Source: a virus (taxonomy: Duplodnaviria > Heunggongvirae > Uroviricota > Caudoviricetes). Taken from it: a stretch of 64,000 nucleotides of DNA. Below the pieces are notes generated by a model. It saw only the letters and a list, made by a program, of their open reading frames with translations, was not told the DNA's origin and made no database searches. The DNA is taken from IMG/VR virus record IMGVR_UViG_3300045911_000760. The stretch is one strand, 5' to 3'. Every line of letters begins with the position of its first letter. The first letter of the stretch is position 1. The position numbers and the translations under genes were made by a program. This document shows, piece after piece, positions 5,301 to 53,635 of the stretch.

Positions 5301-6307
5301 GTGGTGAAGTTCCACTCGGCGGGGTCGTCGATCCCGCCCCACGGCTCGCCATCGTCCAGGGACTCGATTGCGCCGTCATCGACCAGGACGTGATAGGCGG
5401 TCTCGTGGTCGAGTGGCGCCGATAGCTCAAGCGTGACGGTCGACCCATCGAAGGTCGCGTCGGTCTCGACGTCCCACGCCTCGACCAAGCCCACGCCGGT
5501 CTCGTGGAGCTCGACGAAGCCCGCGCCCGCGGCGACGGACTGGTCGAACGTGAGCACCAGCTCCGCGTCGACCGAGACACCCGTGGCGTTGTCGGCCGGC
5601 GAGATCCCGGTGAGCACCGGGGGCTCGGGGTCTCCGCCGCCGCCCCCGGGCCCCCCGTCGCCTTCGACGAGCTCGCCGACGATGAACATCGGCCCGAGCC
5701 AGTTCGATCCGTCCTGCGTGAACCCGGGCGTCGTGGTGTCGCCGTACGCAGCTACGGCAACGTGGGGGTTGTCCTCCGGATCTGCCGGGTCAGGGACGCG
5801 CCCAACCTCGACAAGCGGGGAATCCCCTGTGAGGTCGAGACCGGGTGGCCCGAAGGCTCCGGCGAACGCTGTGGCGCGGTTCTCGGCGGCGCCGAACGTC
5901 GCCATCGTCGTGGTGAGCACACGGCGCAGGACGTCGGACTGCCCGTCTCGGTACGCGGCCGCGCCGTTGGGGAGGCTATCGTCGTAGCCGGACCACGCCT
6001 TGGCCACCCAGGCGACGCTTTCGAGTCCCGCGCCATACGCGATCGAAATCTGACCCGTGGCGTCGGACGTCGCCACGCCGCGGTAGCGCATCGCGTACTC
6101 CGCAAAGGAGCCGCCGTTCACCTCCAGTTCCCACTCGATGCCCAGCCCGGTCGGGGTGACCGTCGGCTCCGTCTCGCCGCCGAAGACGAGCAGGTCGAGC
6201 TCGATGAGCTCGCCAGCCACGACGGAGATCGACGCGGTCTGGACGGGGCTGGGCGTGTCCCAGCTCGCCGCCCTTCCGGCGGTGAGAAAGCGTACTGAAA
6301 GCGGCAT
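2366..6307 (-). CDS. large tail fibre / receptor-binding protein (1313 aa) with a tandemly duplicated N-terminal module
   Basis: Long ORF at the distal end of the tail/fibre cluster. It contains two copies of a roughly 250-aa module (WSGYDDSLPNGAAAYRDGQSDVLRRVLTTTMATFGAA / ITGYDDSSANGAAAYVQTSIVRGALTTTLSALGDAA) that includes an Ig-like SbsA-type segment (SPADNATGVSVDAELVLTFDQSV). The central region has an alkaline-phosphatase/sulfatase-like SDHG signature (LIFSDHGTNNVHLTDLG). A distinct about 100-aa C-terminal domain is present (DYGFNWSSW...RVTNRVTTDNTP). Confidence 0.6.
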   Translation of the reverse strand: MPLSVRFLTAGRAASWDTPSPVQTASISVVAGELIELDLLVFGGETEPTVTPTGLGIEWELEVNGGSFAEYAMRYRGVATSDATGQISIAYGAGLESVAWVAKAWSGYDDSLPNGAAAYRDGQSDVLRRVLTTTMATFGAAENRATAFAGAFGPPGLDLTGDSPLVEVGRVPDPADPEDNPHVAVAAYGDTTTPGFTQDGSNWLGPMFIVGELVEGDGGPGGGGGDPEPPVLTGISPADNATGVSVDAELVLTFDQSVAAGAGFVELHETGVGLVEAWDVETDATFDGSTVTLELSAPLDHETAYHVLVDDGAIESLDDGEPWGGIDDPAEWNFTTAAEAPPARSLEIRSLGGYEYSTDDYPEPKTGWLTVYEGELLELDIFTFGSDDVTPSGLGVTWVQVASGGSGGEFAQRWRGVVPASSESDPTITRGKIAFAYDGVTRLAFQARAITGYDDSSANGAAAYVQTSIVRGALTTTLSALGDAAHRVSATAAAFGPETLDLAPASPLTETGRSRVRLGNRFPVVHGWGVTTSPTFDQTGSSWQGPLLIASELAVGEGGPVDPSGSLPEPDDLGPSRTIVAFQIDGHSLTDERIPGDVRDIAIGEGLEVDYGRRYVIGASLEYRTAGGPPIAPAPDYVTWPGYRHGHNRAGENLDLVEHFRNVQAVAGRETARPYDALAFCEGHDLLQAIASHDTVPLARHIYELVREGSPDCVGYFYTTWLPYTVAGLSTWIAYARAKDLAHAAVCSRVNASLALEGRSDRLQILPVSGALAELVEQATTGTLAGITGATVDDTLALIFSDHGTNNVHLTDLGKYFAALVIYGTLYRRDPRGAIYPSTVTGEQAESLQQVAWETLLATFGDAPHLGPQFTATDAQQELVDFVDLYADVYDASPGHGQGDPERAMDRSAMASLLGGTSTAMYFSGDLEEDAEVWYPPPASSWVAVDELEAVEFGTASLVVSPLSLSAPLWGTPAVAVASTDVAGREHGAAALQLAALSASGLLLGSGAVGASVQAAAAPLLGPASAGVSTTAQVALELGLALIDSGALTVDALLALGLGTDVLRVATGQSAAVHGGPAVVVAAPAALEPHALRSPTLPLGATSLSALHHGPASAPLLATTAAARPFGPSTLVLTPAELVALSLGEAELIRLGFEFAALVGLQLGTDALSLRAATLVARELGAAVIAAAAGAFTPPPPTRFVSIEPELRTFSASSTMHQKTIVKDPDATLDYGFNWSSWLQADEEIAESSWTADGDELEIGSGAFAPQTDGSRTTVWLSGGVAGQKYRVTNRVTTDNTPPRTDERSFFVSVMDR

Positions 6308-7690: not shown

Positions 7691-8308
7691 CTACGTCGCG
7701 AGCAGTTCGCGCCCGGCGATCGCGGACGCGATGGCGCGAACGTGTGACATCGGCATGAGCGGTCCGGGATCCACCTTGCCGTTCGTCGCCACGGCGCTGT
7801 GGCCGACGATGCGCCGCACGGACGGATAGGCGGCGGCGATGGACCCGCAGAGCTGGCCGAGGGTGTCAATCTCCTCGTCCGTGTAGATGGCCCACCACTT
7901 CCACGGGGTGCCAGGCATGGTTGCCTGGGCCGCTTCAGATCGAAGCCATTTGCGCCCGTACGTGGTGAACAGCTCGCCGTCACGCTCCACCAGCGGGCCC
8001 GGGTTCACGACCGTCACGCCGAAGGCTCGGTCGTTCCAGCCGGCGGCATGGGCGCCCTTGAACTCCAGCGGCACGTACTGGTGAATTTGGGCAACGGAAT
8101 GCCGCTCCGAATCCATCCAGCCGTCGATGGCGAGGTGGTAGTCGAGTTTGCTCGAGAACACGGCCCGCCTGTTCATGGGCAGGTCATGGCAGACGTCGTA
8201 GTGCACCACGATCGCGTCCGGTCTCCGCAGCGGGAACAGGCGCGACGCTTCCCGCGTGGGGATGTAGTCGCAACGCTCGTCGATGAGCATGTGGTCGACG
8301 ACCTTCAT
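7691..8308 (-). CDS. endolysin, N-acetylmuramoyl-L-alanine amidase (Amidase_2/PGRP fold)
   Basis: Amidase_2-like motifs: IVVHYDVCH, WNDRAFGVTVVNPG, RIVGHSAV. Start taken at the internal ATG (MKVVDHML), which has an ATGA overlap with a 33-aa upstream mini-ORF. Confidence 0.7.
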   Translation of the reverse strand: MKVVDHMLIDERCDYIPTREASRLFPLRRPDAIVVHYDVCHDLPMNRRAVFSSKLDYHLAIDGWMDSERHSVAQIHQYVPLEFKGAHAAGWNDRAFGVTVVNPGPLVERDGELFTTYGRKWLRSEAAQATMPGTPWKWWAIYTDEEIDTLGQLCGSIAAAYPSVRRIVGHSAVATNGKVDPGPLMPMSHVRAIASAIAGRELLAT

Positions 8309-8528
8309 ACGGGAACCACCAGTCTTCGCTTTCGCTCCGCAAACTCGCGGCTCCACGCCTCGGCTTCGCGCTTGCGTCGCTTGTGGTTGGCCATCGGGGT
8401 GGACATCAATTGCCCGTCACGTGGGGCAAGCGATTGAGTTCGCATGTGTTTTTCGGACACGCCGCGTGACACGTGGGCGGACAATCACGTGCTGTCCCAC
8501 TCCGCGCTGCGGTCGTAGACCCAGGCCG

Positions 8529-8700
8529 TCACCCCTTGGTCGGCCCCCGACGCTTCATCCGCTCGAGCCTGAGCGGGCTCTTCAGGGACTCGGGCATCTC
8601 CGGCGGCAGGTCGTCCCGCTTGCCGTCGACGTAGTCGATCGCCGCCTGAATCAGCGGCCCGAAGAGCGTCACGATCTTGAGCACCTCGACGGCGGTCACG
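8529..8700 (-). CDS. small hypothetical protein (about 56 aa)
   Basis: Unlisted short ORF (VTAVEVLKIVTLFGPLIQAAIDYVDGKRDDLPPEMPESLKSPLRLERMKRRGPTKG). Its GTG start overlaps the stop of the upstream gene as GTGA. Coordinates +/-1. Confidence 0.2.
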
Positions 8701-9238
8701 AGTCACCTGCCCCTCCGAGGCCAAGCCACGCCTCGGCCATAGCGAGCGCTTGCAGCGCCTCAGCAGGGACGGTGATTGCTGGGTCCGCTGCGAGTTGCCG
8801 CACGATCCGCACCGCGTCGAGCAGGGCTGTCCGCACGTCCTCCACCTTCCCCACGACGAGGTGTCCATGCGCAGCCGAGAGCGCGGCGTGGGCGAGTTGG
8901 AGTCGCTGGCTCCGGACTTCGGCCGCACGGAGGTCCTTCGCCGAGTAGCCGACGTGCTCGAGTTCCGCCAATCGTTGGTCCTCGACGGTATCGATCGCCG
9001 CGAGGGCCAGGCGAGCCGCGTCGTACGCAACGCGTGCTGGGCTGCCGACGCTCGCCGCAGGCGCGGTCGCTGGCCCGGGCGGGGTACACCCGACGGGCAC
9101 CACGAGCAGCAGGGCAACGGCGGTCACCAGGAGACCCACCAGCGCCCGCACGTAGTAGGCGAACCGCGGCCAGAGCGTGACGCGCCACAGTGCGCGAGAG
9201 AGCCGGCGCTTGCGGCCGACGGGGGCGGCTTGCGTCAT
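8696..9238 (-). CDS. spanin-like / membrane-anchored periplasmic coiled-coil protein (i-spanin candidate)
   Basis: N-terminal TM anchor (ALVGLLVTAVALLLVVPVGC) followed by an alpha-helical domain. It lies in the lysis cassette upstream of the amidase endolysin. No separate lipoprotein o-spanin was identified. Confidence 0.4.
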   Translation of the reverse strand: MTQAAPVGRKRRLSRALWRVTLWPRFAYYVRALVGLLVTAVALLLVVPVGCTPPGPATAPAASVGSPARVAYDAARLALAAIDTVEDQRLAELEHVGYSAKDLRAAEVRSQRLQLAHAALSAAHGHLVVGKVEDVRTALLDAVRIVRQLAADPAITVPAEALQALAMAEAWLGLGGAGDS

Positions 9239-9639
9239 CGGAGCAACCCCTCGTTCTTCGCCCTGACCAGGGCAGCCTCGACGTGGAGACGGAGCAGGGC
9301 GTCGGCGTCCTGCGACACGCGCTGAAGCTCCGCGAGACCGGCGGAGCCGAGCTCGACCTTCGCCGCGCTCACCGCGAATTTCAGCGCCTCGGCGGCGTCG
9401 AGCGGGTCGAGGGTGCCGTCTTCGCTCTTTTCCTTGAGCTTCTCGACGAAGGTCTGATGGGTCGTGAGCACTGCGGTCGCAGCGGCTCGCTCCACGCGCT
9501 CCAGGATCGCGCGCTGGCGGTCGGTGCCGAACCGCTGTGAGAGGAAGTGCCCGGCGCGGGTGATGCCCACGAACAGAATGGTGCTCAGGAGCACGCCGAG
9601 CGCCTCCAGCACCTCGGGGGTGAGGATCTCTTTCAACAT
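9235..9639 (-). CDS. membrane protein, possible holin
   Basis: Internal Met start (MLKEILTPEVLEALGVLLSTILFVGITRAG) gives a 134-aa protein with one N-terminal TM helix. ATGA overlap with the spanin-like gene. It is adjacent to the lysis genes. Confidence 0.3.
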   Translation of the reverse strand: MLKEILTPEVLEALGVLLSTILFVGITRAGHFLSQRFGTDRQRAILERVERAAATAVLTTHQTFVEKLKEKSEDGTLDPLDAAEALKFAVSAAKVELGSAGLAELQRVSQDADALLRLHVEAALVRAKNEGLLR

Positions 9640-9694
9640 GGGGGTCTCCAAGTGGAGGTAGGGCTCCGCGCGAAGGGGCGCAGGGCGGGTGAGT

Positions 9695-10075
9695 TCAGCG
9701 GACGCGTGGATTGGCGCCGTTCGGGTTGCCGTTTCCGGGCGCTCCGTCGGGCGGTCCGCCGCCGGGCGGGATCGTCGCCGGGCCTCGCTCGATGGCGGCA
9801 CGCGCTGCGGCGCGGGCCCGTGCCGTCCCGCGGGTCTCGAGGAGGTCTGCGTGCTCGCGCTCGAGCAGGTAGGTCCCGTCCGCCTCCGGCTCGCGGTAGG
9901 TCCGAGTGCCGCCTTCGACGCGCACGAACTCGCCGCCGGACCCCGGCTGGAGCCAGGCGTCATCGACCGGTGTGCCGTCGGGGCGCTCGCCGTGGAGGTG
10001 CGGGAGCCCGAGCGCCACGTCCACGGCAGCGCGGACGTACTCGGCATCCTCGGAGGTGACACGCCCGCGGCTCAC
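9695..10075 (-). CDS. hypothetical protein (possible fibre-assembly/accessory protein)
   Basis: GTG start overlapping the stop of the LamG-repeat fibre gene (GTGA). About 126 aa with a Gly/Pro/Asn-rich C-terminus. Confidence 0.3.
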   Translation of the reverse strand: MSRGRVTSEDAEYVRAAVDVALGLPHLHGERPDGTPVDDAWLQPGSGGEFVRVEGGTRTYREPEADGTYLLEREHADLLETRGTARARAAARAAIERGPATIPPGGGPPDGAPGNGNPNGANPRVR

Positions 10076-12243
10076 GCTGCCTGCCTCAGGAAGAAGTCGC
10101 GCATGGCTGCGGCCTCGCCGCGATTCGTCGCGCGATTCACTGTCACGAGCCACGAGTGCTTCATGGAGTCGCCGCTCGTGTTCCTGCCGATCTGGAAAGT
10201 ATTGAACGTCGTTGGGTTACCGACCGAGTCGGACTGCACGTTGATCGTGGAGTCCACCTGCGTGAAATTGAACGTGCTCGAGGCGGCGCGGAACGTGGTT
10301 CCTAGGAAGCGTTGCGCAGAGCTGGCAGCGAGGAAACCAGACGATGTGCCCAGGGAGTTGGCGTCGTTGTACCTCCACACGGCCCAGTTATTCGCCGTCG
10401 AAACGAACAACGTGTGCTTGGCGTCGCCCCCCGAGTTCTGCAGGCGGAACGCCCAGATCGCGTCCGCGCGCGCCACGTACTCGACCCACTGAAACACCGA
10501 GAACGCCTTGTCCGTACCGCTCGCGAAGTCGGAGTACCCTGCGCCGTTGGACAGAATCGCGCCGTCCAGGAGCACTGCCGTTTGGGTTCCGATCGTGTCG
10601 GGTGTGGCTGTTCCGGTCGTCGTTCCGAGGTGGCGTCCATTGCCAGACGTGTCGTCCCAGCCGAGCACGCTGCCACCGGACACGGTGATCGACGCGGGTA
10701 TATGCAGTGCCCAGAGATCCGTGCCGAAAAGTTCCTGGGGAGTCGCCTCCAGTGAGTGGCGCGCCATGCGCGCGGCGACGGCTTCGCGCTCGGATTGGGA
10801 AAGAGCTGCCCCGAACCCTACCGCCTCGGAGATGAAGCCGAGCATGGTCGAGCTGTTCTGCGCGAGTTGAAGCGTGGCCTGAGGCGTCGATGACGACGGA
10901 CTGGCGATTGTGCCGGTCTGGGCAGGGGTCGCCATGTCGTTCACGTAGATCTCGACGTCCGCTCCGCTCTTTCGTACGGCGATCAGGTAGGTAGTGTGCG
11001 TTGTGATTGTCCCAGCCGCTGTGCTGATCGTCGTGTTCGCGGAGCCGTTCCCGAAAAAGCAGCTCACCTGGCCCGACGGATTGATCCACCAGTACGTACC
11101 TACATTGGCCGCCGCTGAGTTGTACGTGCGTGTGAGCACGAAACCGTTCGTCAGATCATAGACGCGCACTAGGTAGAAGTCCGTGACCGAGCTCGTTCCG
11201 TCGTGCCGCGGCGTGAAACTCGACGCCGCCAATGACGAGAGCAGATTCGCCGCCGCAAAGTAGCAGGCGTTCCCGGCACCAAACGTCGTCAGGTACGGGC
11301 GACTCGCGGCCGTCGCTTGCGTGAGCGTTCCGCCAAGCGACCCTGGGTTCTGTACTGTCTGCAGGCGCCTAACGTCAGAACTGGTACCCGATTCGAGCGT
11401 GGCGTCGGAGCGGTCGAAACTCGCACCCCACGCAAGCGACAGCGGAACCGCGAGCGCAGACATGTCCCAGCGCTCCGCAAGGTACCCCTCCGCTGCGGCG
11501 CGGTCGGGAAGGTTCGTGCCAGCTGGACCGCCGAATACATGAAGCTCCGGCAGCCAGCCAACGACAGGCGTGGCTCCATTGTTCGCGTTCCCAACGACCG
11601 CGACATGAGCTGAGTTGCCTGTGTTGGGCGAGGAGATCGTTCCCGAGGCGACCTCGGACCCGTTCAGGAACACGGTCACCGTGGTTCCGACTACGCGCAC
11701 CGATACCGTGTAGTCGGTATTGGTCGTGATCGCCGCCGCCACCGAGAGCGATAGTGCGGCACTCCCCGAGCCGTTGCCCCAGCGCACCACGAGAGCGCCT
11801 GTGCTTGCGGCGCGCACCTGCATGCCAACAGTGTTCGCGTTGCCGTCGTACGTTGAGAACAGGTCGTTGTTCGCGGCGAGGCTCGTCGTCCGGAACCGGA
11901 GCGTGAGCAGGTAATCGCCCGTGCCGTCGTGTATGAAGCGCTGGTCGCTGAGCGAGAGAGAGGACAGCGCGAGCCGCCGCGTCCCACGAAAGAACGCGGC
12001 GCCGGTTTCGCGGTCGCGCATCGGCTGAGCGCTCGCGGTCGTCTGCGTCCACGCGGTGCCGAGGGAGCCTGTGTTCGGGCTGCTCGCGACGTAGTCCTCC
12101 AAGAACCCGGGCTCGATCGTCGCACCCGCGCCGGTGCCAATGGTCGAATCCCAAACGATCGCCTGGTCGTAGACGGAGGGGTCGAAAGGTGCGGGCGACG
12201 CACCGACGATAAACGCGCTGGTCAGGACCGCTAGCTGCCTCAC
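10072..12243 (-). CDS. tail fibre / receptor-binding protein with three LamG-like (concanavalin A-like lectin) domains
   Basis: Three repeats of the Laminin_G_3-type pattern: DYTVSVRVVGTTVTVFLNGSEVASG; HTTYLIAVRKSGADVEIYVNDMATPAQTG; HTLFVSTANNWAVWRYNDANSLG. The probable GTG start (VRQLAVLTSAFIVGASPA) overlaps the upstream stop as GTGA. The N-terminus is hydrophobic and signal-peptide-like. Confidence 0.5.
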   Translation of the reverse strand: MRQLAVLTSAFIVGASPAPFDPSVYDQAIVWDSTIGTGAGATIEPGFLEDYVASSPNTGSLGTAWTQTTASAQPMRDRETGAAFFRGTRRLALSSLSLSDQRFIHDGTGDYLLTLRFRTTSLAANNDLFSTYDGNANTVGMQVRAASTGALVVRWGNGSGSAALSLSVAAAITTNTDYTVSVRVVGTTVTVFLNGSEVASGTISSPNTGNSAHVAVVGNANNGATPVVGWLPELHVFGGPAGTNLPDRAAAEGYLAERWDMSALAVPLSLAWGASFDRSDATLESGTSSDVRRLQTVQNPGSLGGTLTQATAASRPYLTTFGAGNACYFAAANLLSSLAASSFTPRHDGTSSVTDFYLVRVYDLTNGFVLTRTYNSAAANVGTYWWINPSGQVSCFFGNGSANTTISTAAGTITTHTTYLIAVRKSGADVEIYVNDMATPAQTGTIASPSSSTPQATLQLAQNSSTMLGFISEAVGFGAALSQSEREAVAARMARHSLEATPQELFGTDLWALHIPASITVSGGSVLGWDDTSGNGRHLGTTTGTATPDTIGTQTAVLLDGAILSNGAGYSDFASGTDKAFSVFQWVEYVARADAIWAFRLQNSGGDAKHTLFVSTANNWAVWRYNDANSLGTSSGFLAASSAQRFLGTTFRAASSTFNFTQVDSTINVQSDSVGNPTTFNTFQIGRNTSGDSMKHSWLVTVNRATNRGEAAAMRDFFLRQAA

Positions 12244-13556
12244 GGAGCCTCCGGCTGCGCAGGCGGAACGTACGACTCGACACGAGCCGTCACGCATAGC
12301 GCAATGTTGTGCTCGCTGATGTTCGACGGCTGCAAACGCAGCACCGGCACGTTGTCCACGTGAGTCGTCATGATTCCCACGTTCATTTCGACCAGCTCTG
12401 CCGCGAACAGATCGTTCTCGGAGTCGAAGTCGTTGACAACCGTCTCACTCACCCCGAGGCTCTCGAACGACTCGCGCGCCGTGGCCCCGGTACGGCAGAA
12501 ATAGCGCCGTTGCTCGTGGAACGTGGTGCCGTTCGACGCGGTTCCCGAGACAAGCACCGTGATCCGACATTTGCGCGACGGCGGCAGGACCACGTCGACG
12601 TTCGCCGACGCGGCCGGGGCGATCGTCGTGCTCGTGTCGTGCTGCGGGACCACGCCGTCTCGGTACTGCGCGCCGCCCGAGTTGGTGTACTCGCGGCTGG
12701 CGTCGTAAACCGTCAGGCTCCACTCGTCGACAGCCACGCTGTGCAGCTGCCAACGCATGCCCGGAGCGATCGGCCGATTCCCGTGCACCGTCACGCCCTC
12801 ATCCGGGACGATCGTCAGCGCCGCACCGCCCGCGTGGTAGCCGTTGAGGATCGGGCGCACGCTGCCCGTCGTCCAGCCGAAGCTGGAGTCGGTTCCGAGC
12901 TGCAGAGCGACCGCGCCCGCATTCGTAGTCACGATCAGCGCACGAAGTACCGTCGGCGTGAGCAAGCTCGACGTGCCGGTGATCGTCTGCGGCGCAAGTG
13001 CGTGCGTCGCGTACGGCGACACCTCCCCGCGCCCGACGCTCGCCGTGTAGCGAGACGACGTGCGGACCCAGGCTCCCGTGTCTGAGTCGACGCAGCGGAG
13101 GGTAATCGCCCCCTTCCCGCCCGTCTGCAGGGGCGAGGCGCCGACGAACGACGTATCCCCGTCGATCGTCTGTCCGCCACCGGTGTGCGCGACGGCGACG
13201 CCCGCGTTCCCATCGATGAGGATCTCGATCTCCGCCCCGAGGACCCGACTCGCATCGTCCTGGAGATAGATCACCTGCTGGAAGAAGGCGGCCTCCGCGA
13301 CGATCGTCAGCCGCGTCTGGGCAGGATCGCGGCCGCCGTAGACGCTGGCGTCGACCTGGTACTCGTTGGCGATCGGCTCCTCTTCTTCGTCGAGGCGAGG
13401 GGGGAGGTCGGTGACGAGGACGATGATCTCCGTTGCGCCACGAGGCAGGTTCGCCACCTGCGCCTTCTGGTTCTGGCCGCCAGAGACCACAGGAACGAAA
13501 GCGTTCTCGGGAACTGTCTCGAGCTCCGGGAGCTCAGAAATCTTCACTTGGCCCAT
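12240..13556 (-). CDS. tail fibre protein
   Basis: 438-aa ORF downstream of the DUF2313 tail protein. N-terminus MGQVKISELPELETVPENAFVPVVSGG resembles tail fibre N-termini. Ser/Thr/Gly-rich beta-type composition. Confidence 0.45.
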   Translation of the reverse strand: MGQVKISELPELETVPENAFVPVVSGGQNQKAQVANLPRGATEIIVLVTDLPPRLDEEEEPIANEYQVDASVYGGRDPAQTRLTIVAEAAFFQQVIYLQDDASRVLGAEIEILIDGNAGVAVAHTGGGQTIDGDTSFVGASPLQTGGKGAITLRCVDSDTGAWVRTSSRYTASVGRGEVSPYATHALAPQTITGTSSLLTPTVLRALIVTTNAGAVALQLGTDSSFGWTTGSVRPILNGYHAGGAALTIVPDEGVTVHGNRPIAPGMRWQLHSVAVDEWSLTVYDASREYTNSGGAQYRDGVVPQHDTSTTIAPAASANVDVVLPPSRKCRITVLVSGTASNGTTFHEQRRYFCRTGATARESFESLGVSETVVNDFDSENDLFAAELVEMNVGIMTTHVDNVPVLRLQPSNISEHNIALCVTARVESYVPPAQPEAP

Positions 13557-13559
13557 GGG

Positions 13560-14648
13560 CTATGCCTCCACCATGATCAGGTCGTCGTCCTCGGTGACCA
13601 GGTCGTCACCGTCTTCGGTGGCGAGGACCGCGACGTACTCCACGCGCGTCACCACCCACTGCTGCGAGGGCTTCAGCTTCTGGATGAACCACTCGAACTC
13701 AGCGCGGCGCGCCGCAGGGATTTGGGCGCGTTCCGGGAAGTTCTCTCCGCCGATGTAGAGGAAGTACCTCCACGCGTCCGGGTCGGCAGGGATCGGAGGG
13801 GGGGCTCTCCGCGTCAGGTCGAGGTTGACGATGTAGCCCGGGTCGTTGACGAGGAAGTCGTTGCAGTACGGCGCCTCGGGTCCGTCGTAGGCTTCCGGAC
13901 AATCCGGATCGGTGTCGTCCTCGCACTGGAAGAGGCCGGTGAGCGGCTGGTCCGCATAGTGCAGCGGGTTGCGGGGAACGCGCGGTAGTTCCGGGAGAAG
14001 CGAGGGCTCCCAGAGGTTGTCGTCGGTGTATTCGACATTCAGAGGGAGCGTCAGAAAAGCGCCGGGCGCTCCAGGGACTTCGACCTCCCACGGCTCCCCG
14101 AACCAGTTCTGAGAGAGCGGGGCGGACCACGTGGCGCCACCGTCGACCGAAGTCTCGATCGTCAGCAGCGGGCCGCCCGGGTCGGTCGGCGCGATGTACT
14201 CGACGACGCGGACACCAAGCCCGGTGAGCTGGAGGTAGATGCCCGATACCGTGATCGTGGGCGGGAGTGTTCCGCTCCCCGAGAGTTCGCTCTCAATGAT
14301 CGGGACGTTCCACCACCACTCGTGGACGTATACGTCGAACCCGGCCGCTTGGAGGACATCCTGGATGTACCGCGGCGACTGCCCGCCGGTGGCCTTCCAC
14401 GACGCATCCAGCGCACGCCTCCTGCGCGAATCGCTCGGCGAAGGCCAGACCCCGAACTGCTCGCACCAGAGTCCGAGCTGTCGGGTAGTCGGAGGGAACA
14501 GGTCGAGGAAGACCTGGTCGACGTAGCCCTTCGTTTCCTGGGGCTGCTCCGCGAGCCCTTCGAAGAAGCGGCGCAGCGTCTTGTCCACGACGATGCGCCA
14601 GGCCTTCCCAGTGGGGAGGAGGGCTTTGATGGTTTCGAAGAGGCTCAT
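13560..14648 (-). CDS. phage tail protein, YmfQ/DUF2313 family (Mu gp48-like)
   Basis: N-terminus MSLFETIKALLPTGKAWR is characteristic of DUF2313 tail proteins, which are encoded next to baseplate J in Mu/P2-like tails. Confidence 0.55.
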   Translation of the reverse strand: MSLFETIKALLPTGKAWRIVVDKTLRRFFEGLAEQPQETKGYVDQVFLDLFPPTTRQLGLWCEQFGVWPSPSDSRRRRALDASWKATGGQSPRYIQDVLQAAGFDVYVHEWWWNVPIIESELSGSGTLPPTITVSGIYLQLTGLGVRVVEYIAPTDPGGPLLTIETSVDGGATWSAPLSQNWFGEPWEVEVPGAPGAFLTLPLNVEYTDDNLWEPSLLPELPRVPRNPLHYADQPLTGLFQCEDDTDPDCPEAYDGPEAPYCNDFLVNDPGYIVNLDLTRRAPPPIPADPDAWRYFLYIGGENFPERAQIPAARRAEFEWFIQKLKPSQQWVVTRVEYVAVLATEDGDDLVTEDDDLIMVEA

Positions 14649-14716
14649 TGGAGCTTGGCCATGGGGCCGGCGTGGGCGTCAGTTGACGCCACCTTGCTGA
14701 GGTTCTCAGCTTGCTG

Positions 14717-15143
14717 GATGACCAATCACTTGCAGCAGCACCTGTTGCCCGGGGAGCGCGTCCAGCACGTTGGTCGCCTTCACTGGGCGATGTACCTACC
14801 GGGGGCCATCTTCGTGCCGATTCTGATCGGGATCCCGATCGTGCTGCTCCTGTGGATCCGCAGAGTCACGACCGAGATGGTCGTCACCGACCGGAGGGTG
14901 CTCGTGAAGACGGGGCTACTCGCTCGCGAGATCGACGAGCTGCGCCTCGAGAAGGTCGAGTCCGTGCAGGCCACGACGTTTCTCGGGCTCAGCTTCGGAA
15001 GCCTGAAGATCGTTGGTAGCGGCGGAACGTTCCGCGAAATGCACTGGGTCGAGGAGCCAATGGCGTTCCGGAATGCCGTCCAGAACCAGGCAGACCGTCT
15101 GCGAACTCTCAGCAGTGCCGGGCAGTTGCGGGATAGCGCTTGA
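14717..15143 (+). CDS. bPH_2 (bacterial PH, DUF304/YdbS-like) membrane protein
   Basis: Plus-strand ORF. After the internal Met there are two hydrophobic helices (LPGAIFVPILIGIPIVLLLWI) and then a bPH_2-like segment (VVTDRRVLVKTGLLAREIDELRLEKVESVQATTFLGLSFGSLKIVGSGG). The N-terminal part of the listed ORF overlaps the minus-strand tail gene and is unlikely to be coding. Confidence 0.5.
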
Positions 15144-15241
15144 CCACTAGGGCTAGTGCCAGCACGCTAGCGAAGATGCCCCCGCGTCGGTGCTAGCGAC
15201 CGGGGGCGTGGTCCGAATCCAGCTTGAAGGAGAATTCGAAC

Positions 15242-15922
15242 ATGAGAACAGTGGCCTGGAAGGCGCTCCTTGCCAAGGTGGCCTTGGTCGCCGTCGGATG
15301 CGGCGGGGGCTCAGGCTCAACCATCTTGGATGACTGTGCAGAGTGCGGCCAGGAGCACCAGGATGTGGCAGGCGAGTCGGAAGGGGAGACTCACGACCAC
15401 TTCGATCGATATGCACTCTTGGTCCCGGCGGACCAGTTGCAGGCGATAGAGGTGGACCCCGAGTTCGTCTCCGCTGGTGAATGGGAGGCGGTCGACGCCG
15501 CGACCCAGGCCTGGTTCTACGCCGTCCCCTTGCTCCAGATGCCTGTCGTGGTCGGGTTCTCGGAACCGGATCCGGAGCGGCCTGTTATGCGCATCCGGCG
15601 ACTCTCCGGTCCCAGACCGGACAGCAAGTGGGGAGTTCTGAACGGGGCAGCATACGCGGACAGCTCGATCGCTATATGGCCTGACGACATCCAAACCGGC
15701 GAGATCGCGAACACCGTGGCGCACGAGATCGGGCACATCTTCGGCGCAACGCATCACCCAGACGATGCACTCTCCGAGGTTCCCGCGTCGGCCGTGATGC
15801 GGACCCCGATACGGCTCGACCTGAGTTGCATCACTCGGCAGGACCTCGCGCTGCTCTGCTCTCGCCTGGAGGGCTGCGGGGAGACGAAGGCGGTCTGTCT
15901 GAAGATCCCGGGCGTGCGATAG
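15242..15922 (+). CDS. secreted lipoprotein zinc metalloprotease (metzincin-type HExxHxxGxxH)
   Basis: ATG preceded by GAAGGAG. Signal peptide with lipobox (LVAVGC). Extended zinc-binding motif HEIGHIFGATHH with a downstream Met-turn-like AVM. Plus strand, convergent with the tail genes. Confidence 0.6.
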   Translation: MRTVAWKALLAKVALVAVGCGGGSGSTILDDCAECGQEHQDVAGESEGETHDHFDRYALLVPADQLQAIEVDPEFVSAGEWEAVDAATQAWFYAVPLLQMPVVVGFSEPDPERPVMRIRRLSGPRPDSKWGVLNGAAYADSSIAIWPDDIQTGEIANTVAHEIGHIFGATHHPDDALSEVPASAVMRTPIRLDLSCITRQDLALLCSRLEGCGETKAVCLKIPGVR

Positions 15923-15924
15923 AC

Positions 15925-16683
15925 TCAAGGGACAATCGGGTCGATGCGCCGCAGTGAGACTCTCGTGCCCCACACTCCTCCGACCACATCGACGTCTCCT
16001 CCTGAGTTTTGGCTGGCCCTCACCTCGATATAGTCGGCGGCGGTGAGTGGAAACTCCATGCACCCAGAGAGCAGGGCGGTGGTCGTGGTGGCGACCCGGG
16101 TCGAATCTAGCGTCCCAACCGACGAACCGTTGAGGTACAGAGCGAGATTCCGGAAGCCGGCAGCCCCCGAGCCGAATGGAACGCGCCAGGACAGGAGGTA
16201 GTACCCTGTTGCCGGAGCGACGAGGCGTTGGGTATTCGAGGAGGTGCTGTGATAGTCGCCGACGTCCCAACTCTCCGAGTTGAAAGTGATCGCTGACTCG
16301 ACCTCGCTCGAGAGCGTCTGATTAGCCGACTTGTAAAGGGAGCAACCGCTGAACTGGTTCTCAATTGCTGCCGTGATAGCAGCATTGCGCGCTGTAACCT
16401 CGTTCGCGAGGAGAGTATCTACCTGGCCGCGCCGGTAGAAGATGGCCAGAAGCGCACCCAGGTACTGGGATACGTTGGCCGTGTCCGGGACTTCGCTCGG
16501 CGCGATGTCCGCGTCGACGAGCAGCGCCTGCAGGAAGCCCTGCAGGTCGTTGACCCAATCGCGCTCGAGCGGGAACCCGGTTCCGTCACCGACGGCGGTT
16601 GCGTTGCGCGCCTTGCCGTAGGGGTAGGCGGGGTCCGTGGTGTCGACGCGGATCCCGTAACGCTCTCTCAGGTCGAGTGCCAT
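15925..16683 (-). CDS. tail/baseplate-associated protein
   Basis: 252-aa ORF immediately downstream of baseplate J with a beta-rich C-terminal domain (GYYLLSWRVPFGSGAAGFRNLALYLNGSSVG). Function not recognised. Confidence 0.4.
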   Translation of the reverse strand: MALDLRERYGIRVDTTDPAYPYGKARNATAVGDGTGFPLERDWVNDLQGFLQALLVDADIAPSEVPDTANVSQYLGALLAIFYRRGQVDTLLANEVTARNAAITAAIENQFSGCSLYKSANQTLSSEVESAITFNSESWDVGDYHSTSSNTQRLVAPATGYYLLSWRVPFGSGAAGFRNLALYLNGSSVGTLDSTRVATTTTALLSGCMEFPLTAADYIEVRASQNSGGDVDVVGGVWGTRVSLRRIDPIVP

Positions 16684-16687
16684 AGGT

Positions 16688-17872
16688 TCAGCTCAGGGTT
16701 CCCAGCCGGGCCTTCTGGCCCGGCGGCAGGGTGTACTCGGTGATCGGGTTTCCGTTCAGCTGCAGCTCCACCGTCGCTGCGGTTGCCCCCTCCGCCTCCG
16801 CCACGCCCATCACGATCCCCGCGACCGCGCCCTGCGTGATGCGGTCCAAACGAGGCAGAGGCGCTAGCCCCACGATGTAGGGTTCACGCGCTCGAAGGTA
16901 GTCGTCGACGCCCTCGGCGATGGCCTGGAGGACCGCATCCTCGTCTGCAGCCTCGAGCCCACCGAGCAGCACATCGAACGGCTGCCGAGTGATCGGGTAG
17001 ACGTTCACCGCAGCGTTCGCGGGCCGGCGGCTCGCGAGCCCGTTCAGGTCCGCCTCGATCGCGGCTCGGACCTCTTCGAGCTGTGGCTCGGTCGGGATCC
17101 CGTCTTCGCTTCCGGAGCTCGCCACCGTCGCCTCGACGTAGACGTCGACCTCGCCCGGAGCTCCCGTGTAGGGGTACACGTTCAGGATGCCTGCGAGTTC
17201 CTCGCCCCAGGACTGGTAGTCGGCGTAGGCCCCGCCCTGGGGGCGGCGCTGGAAGCGTCGGAAGACCCGGGCGCGATAGGTGTCGGGGTCCTCTGCGTCG
17301 GCCCCGTCGACGGTCCTCGAGACCACCGTCGCGCGGCGCTCGATGTTCGCGAGCGGGTTGGCAAACTCCAGGATGTCTCCGGGGAGCAGATTGCCGATTG
17401 ATCCGGATCCGTCTCCTCCCTGACCGTCGCCCGATGCTCGCACCGTGACCTGCACGACCGGGGCGTCCAGCGCGACGGTTCCTACCACCTGGTAGATCAC
17501 CTGGCTGGCAGGGGAGACGAGCTGTGTCCCTGCCCGGAGGTCGTCGATCTGATTGCGGACAGTGACGTCGACGACGTGCTCGGCCTGCGTCGCCTCCACC
17601 GGGTCTCCGACGCCGACGAGTCGCCCCCACTCCACAAGCGGACGGATCCGCCGGCCGAGGATGACCGTCTCCTCCATCGAGGCATGCGCGACGAAGAGTT
17701 GGAGGAGGATCCAGCCAGCGTACTTGAAGAGCAGAACGGTGACCGCCGCGAGCACCTTCGCGAGCACGTGGACGAAAGCCTTCGGGAGTAGAGGGAGGTC
17801 CTCTGAGAGCTTCGCCTCGAGCTGTGCGACGATGTTCGTCGTGAGCTCTTGGACTGTGGGCTGCTGGATCAT
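16688..17872 (-). CDS. baseplate J-like protein (Mu gp47 / P2 gpJ family)
   Basis: 394-aa ORF between a gp46-like and a DUF2313-like gene, which is the conserved Mu-type order. Sequence features are consistent with the Baseplate_J family. Confidence 0.6.
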   Translation of the reverse strand: MIQQPTVQELTTNIVAQLEAKLSEDLPLLPKAFVHVLAKVLAAVTVLLFKYAGWILLQLFVAHASMEETVILGRRIRPLVEWGRLVGVGDPVEATQAEHVVDVTVRNQIDDLRAGTQLVSPASQVIYQVVGTVALDAPVVQVTVRASGDGQGGDGSGSIGNLLPGDILEFANPLANIERRATVVSRTVDGADAEDPDTYRARVFRRFQRRPQGGAYADYQSWGEELAGILNVYPYTGAPGEVDVYVEATVASSGSEDGIPTEPQLEEVRAAIEADLNGLASRRPANAAVNVYPITRQPFDVLLGGLEAADEDAVLQAIAEGVDDYLRAREPYIVGLAPLPRLDRITQGAVAGIVMGVAEAEGATAATVELQLNGNPITEYTLPPGQKARLGTLS

Positions 17873-24842: not shown

Positions 24843-25258
24843 AGCGACGCGAGTACCGAGAGGGCTTTCACGTCAGCAATTTCCTCGAGTGCGGTGAACT
24901 TCTTCGACGCCACACCTGACATGTCGGCGAGCGCTTCGAAGAGGTTCGCAATCTTTTGCTTCGGGTCGTGCGTTTCGAGCGCGAGGAACGTCGCCCCCCC
25001 GGCCTTCTTGAAGGTGAAGCTCTGACCGTCGAAGCAGCGGTACGTGACGAGGACTCCGTCCTCGTGGACCTCGAGTCGCCCTTCCCGGATGAGGCGAACG
25101 ATCTCTGCGCGCATCGCGCTGAAGTCCTTCTTCTCCTTCGGCGTCATCGAGTCGACGTCTGTGTCGACGCGCCGCCCACGACACAGCCGCTCGAACTCCT
25201 GAGCGGCGGTCTCTTCATCCACCTTGTACTGTTTGCTGGTCATTGTGCTGGTCTCCAA
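24824..25258 (-). CDS. tail assembly chaperone (G/E-like)
   Basis: 144-aa acidic protein located between the tail tube/cargo genes and the tape measure. It ends with a slippery run followed by an open -1 frame. Confidence 0.55.
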   Translation of the reverse strand: METSTMTSKQYKVDEETAAQEFERLCRGRRVDTDVDSMTPKEKKDFSAMRAEIVRLIREGRLEVHEDGVLVTYRCFDGQSFTFKKAGGATFLALETHDPKQKIANLFEALADMSGVASKKFTALEEIADVKALSVLASLFFSPQ

Positions 25259-25790
25259 ACGAAGCGGGGTCGCCCCCGCGGAAAAGCATCAGCATCCGCT
25301 TCCGGTGCTCTGGCCTCTTCACCAGGAGGCGACGCACGGGGGTCGCTCCCGCGGTCCACTCACGAATGCGTGAGACCCCGATCCCGGCGTGGGTCTTGTT
25401 CGTGCGGGTCCACCTGAAGGGGAACGAGATGAGGACGTGGCCGGATGGGCCTGCGACGCGCGCGGCCTCGAGGAACGCCGCCTCCTGTCGCCCCTCGAAG
25501 TGCTCCCAGCACTGCAGGGCGAGAACGAGGTCGTACGACGCTGAGGCTACGGGCCACGGGGTGGCGCCGGCGTCGTGGAGGTACGTGGGCGAGAAGTCCG
25601 CGGAGATGTCGAGGGTGTCGGAGCCGGGGACGAAGGGGTGCGGTCCGGGGCCGACCTCGAGGACCCGCGACGGGCTCAGCGTTGCCACCAGCCGCGCCAC
25701 GTGACGCAGGTAGACCCAGCGGCCGCGGAGGTACGGATGCACGTGCTCCGCGGCGCGGAAGTCCTCCTCCGAGATGGGTTCAAGCGGCAT
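25215..25790 (-). CDS. class I SAM-dependent methyltransferase
   Basis: Motif I VLEVGPGPHPF and post-I acidic residue. LVLALQCWEH resembles the motif II/III region. Start taken at the internal Met (MPLEPISEE). Overlaps the GT2 stop. Confidence 0.55.
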   Translation of the reverse strand: MPLEPISEEDFRAAEHVHPYLRGRWVYLRHVARLVATLSPSRVLEVGPGPHPFVPGSDTLDISADFSPTYLHDAGATPWPVASASYDLVLALQCWEHFEGRQEAAFLEAARVAGPSGHVLISFPFRWTRTNKTHAGIGVSRIREWTAGATPVRRLLVKRPEHRKRMLMLFRGGDPASFGDQHNDQQTVQGG

Positions 25791-26667
25791 GGGCGGAAAC
25801 CGCGGCGCGCACTCGCGCCACCTGCTCACGCCACCAGGGGGCCCCTGCGTGGGCCTCCTCCTGCATGCAGGCGAACATGGCGGTGTTCCGCGCCCGGAGC
25901 TCTTCGTCGAAGTGCAGCGGGTCCCGCTCGTGGGGCTGGTGGAGGAAGAGGACGCTGGTCAGCAGGTGCACCTCGACGAGCTGCTCGAGCACGTCGAGGA
26001 ACCGAAGCCGCCGGCAGAGGTCGATCTTGTTCGCTCCCCATCCGAGGTAGCGCTCATCGAACCCGCCCAGCGCCTCCCAGAGCCAGCGCGGCATCGAGGG
26101 AAACCCCTCGGGGAGCGTGAAGAGGTGCGTGGTCGCTGGAGCTCCGGGGCGGTAGCAGTGGTGTAGCCCGCTCGCCGTCTTCCGGTGCCGCGGGAGCGCC
26201 CACGGATCGCCCGCGTAGGAGGCCCATTCGGTGGGCGTCACGTCGGGCTCCGCGAAGCAGGGGGACACACAGACGGGCCGCTGACTCGCGCTGGCGACGG
26301 CCTTCAGGTGCTCCACGGCGCCGGGGTCGGCGAGCATGTCCGCGTCGAGCACCCAGAGGTGCTGTCCGACGGCTTCTCGGCACCCGGCGTTCCGGGCGTG
26401 GTTCCTGTGCGGGAGGTGCCCAGCGTGCGCCGTGCGCGGCGAGGGGACCACGGCAAGCCGCTTGCCCACCTGGGGCAGGTCGAGCGCGTCGATGCACGCC
26501 CAGGGGAAGTCGGCGGACGCTGCGTCGACCGCCACCACCACTTCGAAGTCCTGGTCGGTCTGGTGCTCGAGCGCCGCGACAGACCGGCGCAGGAGCGGCA
26601 ACCCCTCCTGGTGCACCGGGAAGACGAAGCTGACGAAAGGGTCAGCATTCATAGAGCTGCCAGCCAT
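25780..26667 (-). CDS. glycosyltransferase family 2 (GT-A fold)
   Basis: VSFVFPVHQEG...DFEVVVAVDAAS near the N-terminus, DXD motif WVLDADM. No TM segments, so it is soluble. Confidence 0.65.
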   Translation of the reverse strand: MAGSSMNADPFVSFVFPVHQEGLPLLRRSVAALEHQTDQDFEVVVAVDAASADFPWACIDALDLPQVGKRLAVVPSPRTAHAGHLPHRNHARNAGCREAVGQHLWVLDADMLADPGAVEHLKAVASASQRPVCVSPCFAEPDVTPTEWASYAGDPWALPRHRKTASGLHHCYRPGAPATTHLFTLPEGFPSMPRWLWEALGGFDERYLGWGANKIDLCRRLRFLDVLEQLVEVHLLTSVLFLHQPHERDPLHFDEELRARNTAMFACMQEEAHAGAPWWREQVARVRAAVSAHAA

Positions 26668-45898: not shown

Positions 45899-46456
45899 TC
45901 ACCGCTTCGCCCTCCGCTTCGCCTGAGCCTTGGCCGACTTCACCCGCGCCGCGGCGGCCACGAGCGCCGGGTGAGCTGGAACGGCGCCAGCCGCCACGCC
46001 AATGCAGACCGCGTCGCTGCGGTTCAGACCGATGCGCCCCTTCGGCCAACCCAGCACTCGGGTCATCGCTGCGGTCCGGCACTCCTCCTTCGAAGCCGTG
46101 GAGCGCCCGGTCATCGCCCTCCGCCAGGTCTGCCCCGTCACCCCGACAAAGGGGATCCTGCGGATCTTCGCGAAGAGCCGCGCCTGACCGACCGAGTCCA
46201 GGATGAGGCCCGACCCGTTGCCCCGCTTCACCTCCGGGTCCTTCGTGTGGAGCGACCAGTCCACCTCCTCGTAGGCGCACACATCCACGTGAATTCCCGA
46301 GTGGTGGATCTCGGCCAGCTCCGCCGCCAGGTCGTCCAACGAGTGCAGGACTGGCAAACGAAGAATGCTCCAGCGCTGACCTTCCTTTGCCTGGAGCGCA
46401 AGGGCTGGGCTGGAGAAACCGGGGTCGAGCGAGAGAACCACGAACATGCCGCTCAC
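45899..46456 (-). CDS. RuvC-like Holliday junction resolvase
   Basis: N-terminal VVLSLDPGFSSPALAL (catalytic Asp context) and C-terminal SDAVCIGVAAG, giving a RuvC-like pattern. Confidence 0.6.
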   Translation of the reverse strand: MSGMFVVLSLDPGFSSPALALQAKEGQRWSILRLPVLHSLDDLAAELAEIHHSGIHVDVCAYEEVDWSLHTKDPEVKRGNGSGLILDSVGQARLFAKIRRIPFVGVTGQTWRRAMTGRSTASKEECRTAAMTRVLGWPKGRIGLNRSDAVCIGVAAGAVPAHPALVAAAARVKSAKAQAKRRAKR

Positions 46457-47319
46457 TTCACCTGCAGCATCGGGATCGGCCCCGACCCGGTGTAGTGCGG
46501 AAGCTGGCCGTTCCAGCGCTCGGCGATGCGGAGCTGGATCAGGTTGGGGTTCGCCTCGAGCGCCTTCGATTCGCGGGCGATTGCCTCGGCTCGCGCCTTC
46601 GACTCGACCTCCGTCTTGAAGGCGATCGACTCGGCCGACAGCCGGCGCTCGGCGGCTTCCGCCTCCGCTTGGGTCACCCGCTTCTTCTTCTCGTTCTCCG
46701 CCTTCAAAGCCTCTTGCTCGGCCTTCACCTTCTGCTCGATGGCGTGGTTGAACTCTGGGGAGAACTCGAAGTCGGTCACCGCCACGTTGGCTAGGCGAAC
46801 GGCGCCCTGGATGTCCTTGTCACGCAAGGTCTTGTCGACGAATTCGGCAATTGCTCGCTCGATTCCACCCTTCACTTCGGCGCGGTGCGTGATGAGCCGC
46901 TCCGCGTTGTAGAGACTCGTGACGGACTTCACACTTTCCTGGATTGCTGGCTTCAGGAGCGCAGCCTCGGCCGCTTCCGAGAAGCCAAACCGCTGCGCCA
47001 TCCGCGGCGCGAACCCAGGCTGGATGCTGTACTGAACCGTCACCGCGGTTTCGACGACCTGCAGGTCCTTCGACGCCGCTTTCGCGTCCTGGCTGATCGC
47101 GCGCATCTTCACGTCGACCTTGTCGACGCTCGCCCATGGGCGGAGGAAGTGCATGCCCTCGGGGAGGGTGTACGGCTGCACGGCACCGAAGTGCTTCACG
47201 ACTCCGACGTGTCCGGAGTCGATGGTTGAGCAGCTTGTTACGAGGCAAACGAGGCTCACCAGCGCGAGTAGCGCGGCGAGGATGATGCCGGAGGGAACGT
47301 CGTCGTCGTGTCGTGACAT
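46453..47319 (-). CDS. SPFH / band-7 (prohibitin/HflC-like) membrane protein
   Basis: N-terminal TM segment. SPFH core (VVKHFGAVQPYTLPEGMHFLRPW...). Ala/Glu-rich coiled-coil C-terminus (KAEQEALKAENEKKKRVTQAEAEAAERR). Confidence 0.7.
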   Translation of the reverse strand: MSRHDDDVPSGIILAALLALVSLVCLVTSCSTIDSGHVGVVKHFGAVQPYTLPEGMHFLRPWASVDKVDVKMRAISQDAKAASKDLQVVETAVTVQYSIQPGFAPRMAQRFGFSEAAEAALLKPAIQESVKSVTSLYNAERLITHRAEVKGGIERAIAEFVDKTLRDKDIQGAVRLANVAVTDFEFSPEFNHAIEQKVKAEQEALKAENEKKKRVTQAEAEAAERRLSAESIAFKTEVESKARAEAIARESKALEANPNLIQLRIAERWNGQLPHYTGSGPIPMLQVK

Positions 47320-53369: not shown

Positions 53370-53635
53370 CGCCCCGTGACCTTCCCCTCAGCCACGCAGC
53401 TCGCAGCGAACAGCAGCTGCAGCGCAGCGTGGTGCAGCTTGAGCTCCCCGCTCGCCTCGTCGCGGCCCTCGTACATCGGGCCAGCGGCGCACATCGCCGT
53501 GTCCGCCTCGTGGAAGTGGAAGTCGGCGTCGAGGTGCCGCACTTCGACGACACCCTGAGAGACGATCCGCTCGAGCGCGTCGAGTTGGGCACCGAGCCCG
53601 ATGGCGTGGAGGTTGGGGTACTTGTCGTCCTTCAT
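53366..53635 (-). CDS. small hypothetical protein (89 aa)
   Basis: Internal ATG start has an ATGA overlap with the Dam-like gene stop. The upstream part of the listed ORF is Arg-rich. Confidence 0.3.
   Translation of the reverse strand: MKDDKYPNLHAIGLGAQLDALERIVSQGVVEVRHLDADFHFHEADTAMCAAGPMYEGRDEASGELKLHHAALQLLFAASCVAEGKVTGR

Follow-up and report, generated by a model that had tools for sequence, protein, structure and literature searches.

The 64,000-nucleotide stretch of tailed-phage DNA analysed here (IMG/VR record IMGVR_UViG_3300045911_000760, Caudoviricetes; the window in the following) carries at positions 14649–15924 a horizontally acquired two-gene accessory cassette, a moron in the general sense of the concept (PMC3594210), which is oriented opposite to the tail module that surrounds it. 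The first gene, ORF-A, codes for an inner-membrane protein with a bPH_2 domain, and the second, ORF-B, codes for a predicted zinc endopeptidase that, judged by its sequence, has a complete catalytic site in a metzincin fold of the matrixin-like type. ORF-B lies tail-to-tail with the gene of a short tail fibre that carries a putative C1q-like receptor-binding head, and this pairing recurs in the sole close relative of the protease locus. We propose, tentatively and with somewhat less than an even chance of being right, that the protease acts in the envelope, is linked to a receptor-binding protein (RBP) and would alter the receptor of the fibre in the service of superinfection exclusion or of progeny protection. 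A first-pass annotation of the window had placed at 14650–15925 two plus-strand genes for a membrane protein and a metzincin lipoprotein; both open reading frames are present as it described them, but its reading of the context was incomplete, as the convergent C1q-headed fibre gene was missed.

An Oppositely Oriented Insertion in the Tail Module

All other called genes of a 20.7-kb locus that is identical to the window locus (L001) lie on the minus strand, and a screen of the GC content at third codon positions (GC3) from position 1 to about 39 kb yielded no further credible plus-strand gene, in agreement with the earlier statement that ORF-A and ORF-B are the only credible plus-strand genes of the region. 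The gene order is baseplate J, which lies upstream of the fibre gene, then the fibre gene itself, then the cassette, then a gp48-like baseplate gene, which forms the left border of the insertion. ORF-A and the gp48-like gene are divergent, and ORF-B and the fibre gene are convergent with only 2 nt between their stop codons. The first-pass annotation had seen the cassette as splitting an otherwise contiguous order of J and gp48 (DUF2313); the actual split is between fibre and gp48, since the 252-residue fibre gene intervenes.

Evidence for acquisition comes from 69 related loci, which were retrieved from IMG/VR with J and its first relative, aligned, as the query and whose J proteins are 43–59% identical to that of the window. 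Homologues of W, J, gp48 and the fibre N-terminus were found by tblastn throughout these loci, and neither the protease nor the bPH_2 gene is present in any of them. In most relatives the genes run W-J-gp48-fibre (with J overlapping gp48 in L003), and the six closest (J identity 56–59%) share the W-J-fibre-gp48 arrangement of the window. In four of these six (L021, L023, L024 and L032) the fibre stop codon is separated by 7–13 nt from the gp48 start on one strand, in L026 the gap amounts to about 170–290 nt, and in L022 the contig ends before gp48. The cassette is absent at the same site in relatives, as expected of a moron. An insertion of the transposition type, marked by flanking direct repeats, was also considered and rejected, as no convincing repeats flank the cassette. 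Searches of GTDB and JGI with the J protein alone returned no match.

The base composition may point in the same direction. GC3 is 0.76 for the fibre gene, 0.78 for ORF-B and 0.82 for ORF-A, as compared to 0.84–0.85 for J, gp48 and a 438-aa gene, which is a small shift.

A Matrixin-Like Metzincin in a Rare Phage Family

ORF-B starts with a signal peptide (residues 1–20, MRTVAWKALLAKVALVAVGC) that ends at the lipobox-like Cys20. The N-terminus reads MRTVAWKALLAKVALVAVG-C20-GGGSGS and continues into a disordered acidic linker with His and Cys (residues 21–55), which is followed by the catalytic domain (approximately residues 60–226). The zinc motif HEIGHIFGATH at residues 161–171 provides H161, E162, H165, G168 and H171, and M186 (SAVMRTP) aligns in the profile alignment with the Met-turn of matrix metalloproteinases (MMPs; ALMYP). 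A cysteine-switch prodomain (PRCGxPD) is lacking; only the linker of about 35 residues precedes the catalytic domain, and its cysteines C32 and C35 are conserved neither in P0002 nor in the other family members. The C-terminus contains four Cys and a strictly conserved tail, CGETKAVCLKIPGVR. These last 15 residues are identical in the window protein, P0001, and in its homologue P0002 while the DNA differs at synonymous sites, which indicates, at the level of sequence, purifying selection on the protein.

How is this protein related to known metalloproteases? A search of 5.8 billion clustered proteins returned a single relative, P0002, with 48% identity. A profile built from P0001 and P0002 was then used in a HMMER search of 1.84 billion representatives, which at a cut-off of E<=1e-3 gave a family of 21 clusters with members of 142–226 aa in the 21-member alignment. 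The N-terminal signal ends in a Cys at the lipobox position, present in at least 90% of the members, and is followed by a variable linker and an invariant Trp in the first helix. Within the zinc motif HExxHxxGxxH the first His, the Glu and the second His are invariant and the Gly is nearly so, 18 of the 21 members have a Met no more than 35 residues past the motif, and the C-terminal module (C-I-T..D...C....C......C) has three to four conserved Cys. There is variation on this theme: P0008, P0009, P0010, P0013 and P0014 have their third zinc ligand one residue further on (HExxHxxGxxxH), and in P0012 and P0017 neither place holds an unambiguous third His. His or acidic residues abound in several linkers, such as HHHHYE in P0004, which could represent an inhibitory segment of the switch type.

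The assignment to the matrixins comes from the family and from the fold. Pfam Peptidase_M10 (PF00413) is matched at E<=0.01 by 17 of the 21 members, and the family profile matches the catalytic domain of MMP-1 with E 6e-12 over helix A, zinc motif, Met-turn and helix C, and the bacterial karilysin with E 2e-7. The fold comprises the five-strand sheet, the active-site helix and the C-terminal helix of metzincins. The window protein by itself reaches the gathering score of no Pfam model; its best match is Reprolysin_5 with 26.3 bits against a gathering score of 27, PF00413 is not matched, and the similarity to ADAM33 (E 0.026) is sub-threshold and at the level of the motif. A Reprolysin/M12 assignment was discarded, since these matches are confined to the motif and sub-threshold and both family profile and fold favour M10 over M12. 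By these comparisons ORF-B is a divergent matrixin (M10)-like metzincin that is not a member of the curated family PF00413.

Searches for the protease by tblastn in 50,697 phage records, in IMG/VR for further loci, in the GTDB representative genomes and in JGI metagenome contigs found none, none of the 21 members matches PHROG, and a Foldseek search of BFVD structures retrieved small phage proteins labelled matrixin only at E 6e-3 to 4e-2. Eight distinct genomic contexts could be retrieved, and seven of them show phage hallmarks. The protease adjoins the large terminase in L011 (PHROG 38, 2.6e-56), is accompanied by a phage RNA ligase, a tail-fibre-like gene and a Band_7 gene in L004, L006 and L007, by a gene of PHROG 20667 in L008, by tail-type genes in L013 (PHROG 5417 and PHROG 356, with a faint Big_5 match) and by tail genes in L002 and in the window; the neighbours in L005 are without family matches. 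Some of these contexts look like lytic phages. The family is thus rare, uncharacterised and, among the contexts examined, found almost solely with phage genes. A match of P0020 to L020 (CAKLQH020000026.1, labelled 'Acinetobacter phage MD-2021a') was set aside as irrelevant, since the stretch concerned is bacterial chromosome (dnaK, grpE, purK, purE, mltB) with two chromosomal 'Matrixin' genes. Band_7 genes are located at 3176–4192 of L004 and 3394–4407 of L006, 2–2.5 kb from P0020 and P0022 in unrelated phage-like contigs, and a Band_7/SPFH protein is also encoded in the early region of the window (46453–47319, minus strand).

Being compact, with a catalytic domain of about 165 aa, devoid of a prodomain and probably anchored in the envelope, members of this family could serve as a tractable minimal metzincin and as a tool for editing bacterial surfaces.

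The Convergent Fibre Gene

Over its first 80–140 residues the fibre protein resembles the N-terminal parts of tail fibres and spikes from phages of Vibrio, Pseudoalteromonas, Edwardsiella and Acinetobacter (tblastn, PHROG). The structural model consists of a helical shaft and a C-terminal jelly-roll with a predicted local distance difference test (pLDDT) score above 90, and the head (residues ~112–247) retrieves in Foldseek searches the knob of the phi812 spike (E 2e-12), heads of the C1q, C1QL and TNF families (around 1e-9) and a domain of a cyanophage short tail fibre. The gene thus codes for a short tail fibre whose receptor-binding head is C1q-like.

The head was not found by tblastn in any of the 69 relatives, and by this sequence comparison the distal half of the fibre is foreign to their phage group; since the head is missing from all of them, head and protease look as if they had been acquired together. 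Moreover, in L002 the protease homologue P0002 is convergent with a fibre gene whose head is 48% identical to that of the window. The N-terminus of the L002 fibre is unrelated to that of the window fibre, and a gp48-like protein precedes the fibre in L002, which is the opposite order to that of the window, so that head and protease stay neighbours even where the genes around them are arranged otherwise. Two further contexts resemble this arrangement more loosely. P0006 in L013 is a lone opposite-strand gene, convergent with a Gly_rich_2 minor-tail-like gene that is the last of a fibre-type cluster, and P0003 in L005 is likewise a lone opposite-strand gene, convergent with a 274-aa gene that is also the last of such a cluster, is fibre-like by eye only and has no family match. 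An IMG/VR search for relatives of the fibre head found none, and no convincing opposite-strand lipoprotein morons were seen beside the fibres of the 69 relatives.

The window also encodes several further putative host-recognition proteins on the minus strand (2366–6307 and 10072–13556), namely a 1313-aa Big_5/Gp77 protein, a 741-aa protein with two Laminin_G_3 stretches and a 438-aa protein without matches. The C1q-headed fibre is therefore an additional adhesin and not the sole one.

ORF-A and the Spacer

ORF-A starts either at the ATG at 14661 (160 aa, with GGAG 7 nt upstream) or at the ATG at 14718 (141 aa), the shorter form being in agreement with the length of the PHROG profile. The proposed bPH_2 membrane protein is borne out by a match to Pfam bPH_2 (PF03703) of 30.4 bits at a gathering score of 22 (E 4.8e-7) and by an end-to-end match to PHROG 3707, 'membrane-flanked domain' (E 6.7e-21). 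A single hydrophobic segment of 25–27 aa (residues 40–66 of the 160-aa form) is followed by RR, and the PH-like domain is probably cytoplasmic by the positive-inside rule. Homologues of 27–40% identity occur in 282 phage records and are common in Ackermannviridae and their relatives; an IMG/VR search for relatives of ORF-A found none.

The spacer between the two genes is unusual in composition. CTAG is avoided across the window, with 34 occurrences against about 197 expected from the base composition, and four of these 34 sites cluster within a 50-nt part of the spacer, in a 14-nt palindrome (CACTAGGGCTAGTG) and in two GCTAGC palindromes, the GCTAGCGA repeats, which are spaced 26 nt apart. A GC-rich hairpin and a TTGACC at 15139–15144 are also present, and the ribosome binding site GAAGGAG described in the first-pass annotation is located at 15227–15233, 8 nt before the ATG of ORF-B. 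That annotation had moreover called the leader palindromic, which holds for the CTAG palindromes, while the structure is only modest, with a fold energy of -45.8 kcal/mol, a z-score of -2.3 and 4 of 200 shuffled sequences folding equally well. A search of the spacer against Rfam found no matching family. The spacer is a candidate operator or promoter for ORF-B or a U-less terminator after ORF-A, and its palindromes might be regulatory. The CTAG cluster itself (15139–15200) is not conserved in L002; it may be an operator.

Possible Functions of the Cassette

How could a protease encoded next to a fibre be of use to a phage? Among the functions listed in the first-pass annotation the context favours those that concern the envelope or the receptor. 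ORF-B would be exported, lipid-anchored in the envelope and disulfide-bonded, and because it is antisense to the late tail operon its expression would be independent of that operon, whose transcription in turn would have to cross the cassette in the antisense direction on its way to gp48. The protease would then cleave an envelope protein exposed at the surface or to the periplasm, most likely the receptor of the adjacent C1q-like head or a receptor-associated protein. As a consequence a lysogen or an infected cell would no longer adsorb phages that use this head, and released progeny would be protected from cell debris. By pure inference, the bPH_2 protein might add a second layer at the inner membrane. 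Such a neighbourhood has precedents: Llp adjoins pb5 in T5, and small siphoviruses keep RBP and exclusion factors together at a single locus (PMC9586334, PMC11990801). A more specific version, in which an enzymatic exclusion factor travels as an exchangeable unit with the C1q-like head and removes the receptor or clips incoming heads, we regard as doubtful.

Several observations weigh against the proposal that the protease alters the receptor. A search of the literature turned up no exclusion factor that acts by proteolysis. The signal peptide of ORF-B fails both the PS51257-like and the G+LPP lipobox pattern, as Lys12, 8 residues before the Cys, shortens the uncharged stretch. P0002 passes both patterns and 17 of the 21 family members pass the PS51257-like one, so that the lipoprotein part of the earlier metzincin claim is probable from family conservation, while zinc site and Met-turn are complete. 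Furthermore, the linkage between receptor-binding domain and protease is drawn from two close loci and two looser cases. In four of four phages with more distant homologues of the head (31–44% identity) there is no protease, and a run of the holin/endolysin type follows the fibre. Other family members lie elsewhere, on the same strand as their neighbours, either behind a terminase and a GntR-like gene or surrounded by small genes of the early type. Finally, no sigma-70-like consensus promoter and no intrinsic terminator were found between 13400 and 17000, albeit this consensus may not be that of the host.

Alternatively, the protease could be a helper of lysis or egress that remodels the envelope, the anchored enzyme cleaving for example the tethers between lipoproteins and peptidoglycan and thereby sensitising the cell to the phage lysis proteins. 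A precedent is the prophage metzincin Mtz, which with its partner Tim acts on the cell wall and enhances phage-mediated lysis (PMC8235301), and in lytic-looking contigs, where family members are found among small early-type genes, lysogenic conversion would make no sense. The lysis genes of the window, however, an Amidase_2 endolysin (7691–8356) and its neighbours, are about 6–7 kb away on the minus strand, and the protease gene is antisense to late transcription. Moreover, four contexts place the protease by a fibre and not by lysis genes, and a TIMP-like partner is not present. Taken together we consider a role in lysis unlikely.

The protease, anchored at the surface or released, could also be directed outward as a product of lysogenic conversion that degrades external proteins, be it nutrients, toxins or pili of competitors, or factors of predators or of the host, and that has no role between phages. 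The moron architecture and the presence of P0001 on contigs of up to 705 kb would fit such a function, as would the structural and profile similarity to secreted metzincins, of which karilysin, fragilysin and the serralysins are typical virulence or nutrition factors. On the other hand, the family is extremely rare, seven of its eight contexts carry phage hallmarks and some of them look lytic, the close homologue likewise adjoins the fibre head, and a lipid anchor would limit the reach of the enzyme, all of which renders this explanation improbable as well. Should the function nevertheless turn out to be help in lysis or a service to the lysogen, ORF-B would still be the first member with a defined context in a protease family that is phage-only and without PHROG entry.

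It was also suggested in the first-pass annotation that protease and membrane protein are partners. In its strict form this would mean an obligate two-component module, in which the bPH_2 protein regulates the protease, anchors it or immunises against it and both act only together. ORF-A and ORF-B are indeed adjacent and co-oriented, are separated by a structured, palindrome-rich spacer of 98 nt and are absent together from all relatives, and in bacteriocin loci bPH_2 proteins have been associated with immunity or with transport (PMC8657885). None of the seven other distinct contexts of the family, however, has a bPH_2 gene next to the protease, bPH_2 genes stand alone in other phages, and a cytoplasmic location is predicted for the PH domain, in contrast to the export signal of the protease. 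The open reading frame that overlaps the start of P0002 by 4 nt was considered as a bPH_2 protein and rejected, as it has no detectable bPH_2 similarity in its last 43 aa, the only part on the L002 contig. Such a module is thus very improbable, and because no bPH_2 gene adjoins any other examined family member ORF-A appears to be independent cargo. A tail-fibre chaperone or maturation protease and a virion-associated lysin were both dismissed on account of the export signal, the disulfide-type Cys and the opposite strand, and a known defence system because neither PADLOC nor NCBIfam gave a defence-system match for ORF-B, the only PADLOC hit being capP at E 0.049 and confined to the zinc motif.

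Genomic Setting

The features of the cassette and of its immediate neighbours are listed in Table 1.

Table 1. Coordinates of the cassette and of the flanking tail genes in the window
Feature	Position	Strand	Remarks
ORF-A, bPH_2 inner-membrane protein	14661..15143	+	alternative start 14718
Spacer/leader between ORF-A and ORF-B	15144..15241	+	98 nt
ORF-B, matrixin-like metzincin, 226 aa (predicted)	15242..15922	+	
Short tail fibre, 252 aa	15925..16683	-	PHROG tail-fibre families, tblastn, Foldseek
gp48-like baseplate wedge protein (Mu gp48/P2 gpI-like), 362 aa	13560..14648	-	Pfam Phage_Mu_Gp48, PHROG 4920, PHROG 203
Baseplate J-like protein	16688..17872	-	Pfam Baseplate_J E 5.5e-29; anchor of synteny comparison

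The gp48-like protein matches Pfam Phage_Mu_Gp48 below the gathering score (E 1.8e-7) and PHROG 4920 with 5e-37. It exceeds the versions of all relatives, which have 250–260 aa and directly follow the fibre or J, by about 100 aa. The extra domain (residues 117–216, window 14001–14300) contains an Asp-box-like motif, SVDGGATWS, and is 47% identical to a segment of a 440-aa gp48-like protein encoded at 1444–2766 of L002.

The window as a whole contains genes for a lambda-type terminase gpA, portal, ClpP/S49 protease, capsid E protein, tape-measure protein and a Mu/P2-type baseplate, the latter of which suggests a contractile tail and an element of the myovirus type, and in addition methyltransferases and an SNF2 helicase. 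The window holds phage genes only, and a tRNA scan of it found none. The nearest terminases (44–49%) and fibre anchors are those of phages of Gram-negative hosts. The contigs that carry P0001 reach 705,807 bp, which makes it probable that the element is a prophage integrated in a high-GC host. A lysis-type cluster on the minus strand (7691–9700) comprises the Amidase_2 endolysin, a 56-aa open reading frame and a holin-like one of 134 aa. The lysis region also encodes a lipobox protein of 180 aa (8696–9238) with an N-terminal membrane segment that ends in a lipobox-like VPVGC and precedes a Pro-rich stretch; it could be a spanin, in which case the host would be diderm, as it perhaps is.

Other minus-strand genes are of note. 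Inside the tail module and near the tape-measure gene, a methyltransferase-like gene (Methyltransf_23/11, weak) and a Glycos_transf_2 gene (25215–26667; Pfam matches in L001) might serve glycosylation of the virion or of the cell surface. In the early region 49673–51457, 53632–54819 and 57570–58835 encode an SNF2-type helicase and two DNA methyltransferase-like proteins (D12 class N6-adenine; N6_Mtase/MTS), and a Bro-N protein is found at the right edge of the window (63206–64000).

Comparison With Known Systems

Extra genes for envelope proteins in or next to the tail-fibre region are known from phage lambda as lom and bor. The cassette resembles these morons in encoding extra envelope proteins by the tail-fibre region and in being absent from relatives; it differs in being oriented opposite to the late operon and in having no promoter or terminator that was found by consensus around it.

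With the 'membrane-flanked domain' proteins of the bPH_2 / YdbS-YdbT type (PHROG 3707) ORF-A shares the domain and the N-terminal membrane segment. In the one Ackermannviridae record examined, Klebsiella phage Menlow, the bPH_2 gene is placed among nucleotide-metabolism genes and without protease, whereas ORF-A is paired with a protease gene.

Matrixins (MEROPS M10A, the MMP catalytic domains) and karilysin share with ORF-B a fold of five strands and three helices over about 165 aa, the motif HExxHxxGxxH and the Met-turn. The identity is only 15–21%, and ORF-B has no cysteine switch and instead a probable N-terminal lipobox and a C-terminal 4-Cys module with a conserved tail. The 'matrixin/M10' entries of Maribacter phage Colly_1 and of uncultured Caudovirales in BFVD share the size of 160–200 aa, the phage origin and the metzincin fold, and are uncharacterised. 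Like ORF-B, Mtz of Listeria is a phage accessory metzincin with an export signal, HExxHxxGxxH/D and Met-turn; it acts on the envelope of its own producer, as ORF-B would (PMC8235301). Compared by description, Mtz has an SPI signal, its partner is the lipoprotein, and its locus is downstream of holin and lysin in a Gram-positive host, whereas ORF-B itself has the probable lipobox, lacks a TIMP-like partner and sits beside a tail fibre.

The proposed alteration of the receptor is best compared with Llp of T5 and Cor of T1 and phi80, which have in common with ORF-B a gene adjacent to that of the RBP, an accessory nature and, as is probable for ORF-B, a lipoprotein-type signal and a site of action in the envelope (PMC9586334, PMC11990801). 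Llp and Cor, short and without enzymatic activity, bind and mask FhuA, whereas ORF-B is a 226-aa metzincin with an intact site and is related to them neither in sequence nor in fold. If the proposal is true, a catalytic mechanism would be added to exclusion, as the known factors mask, block the channel or modify glycans, and a receptor-binding domain and its matching exclusion gene would move between phages as one module. In the more specific version with an exchangeable unit, ORF-B would be the proteolytic counterpart of T5 Llp and provide the founding activity of a phage-restricted protease family.

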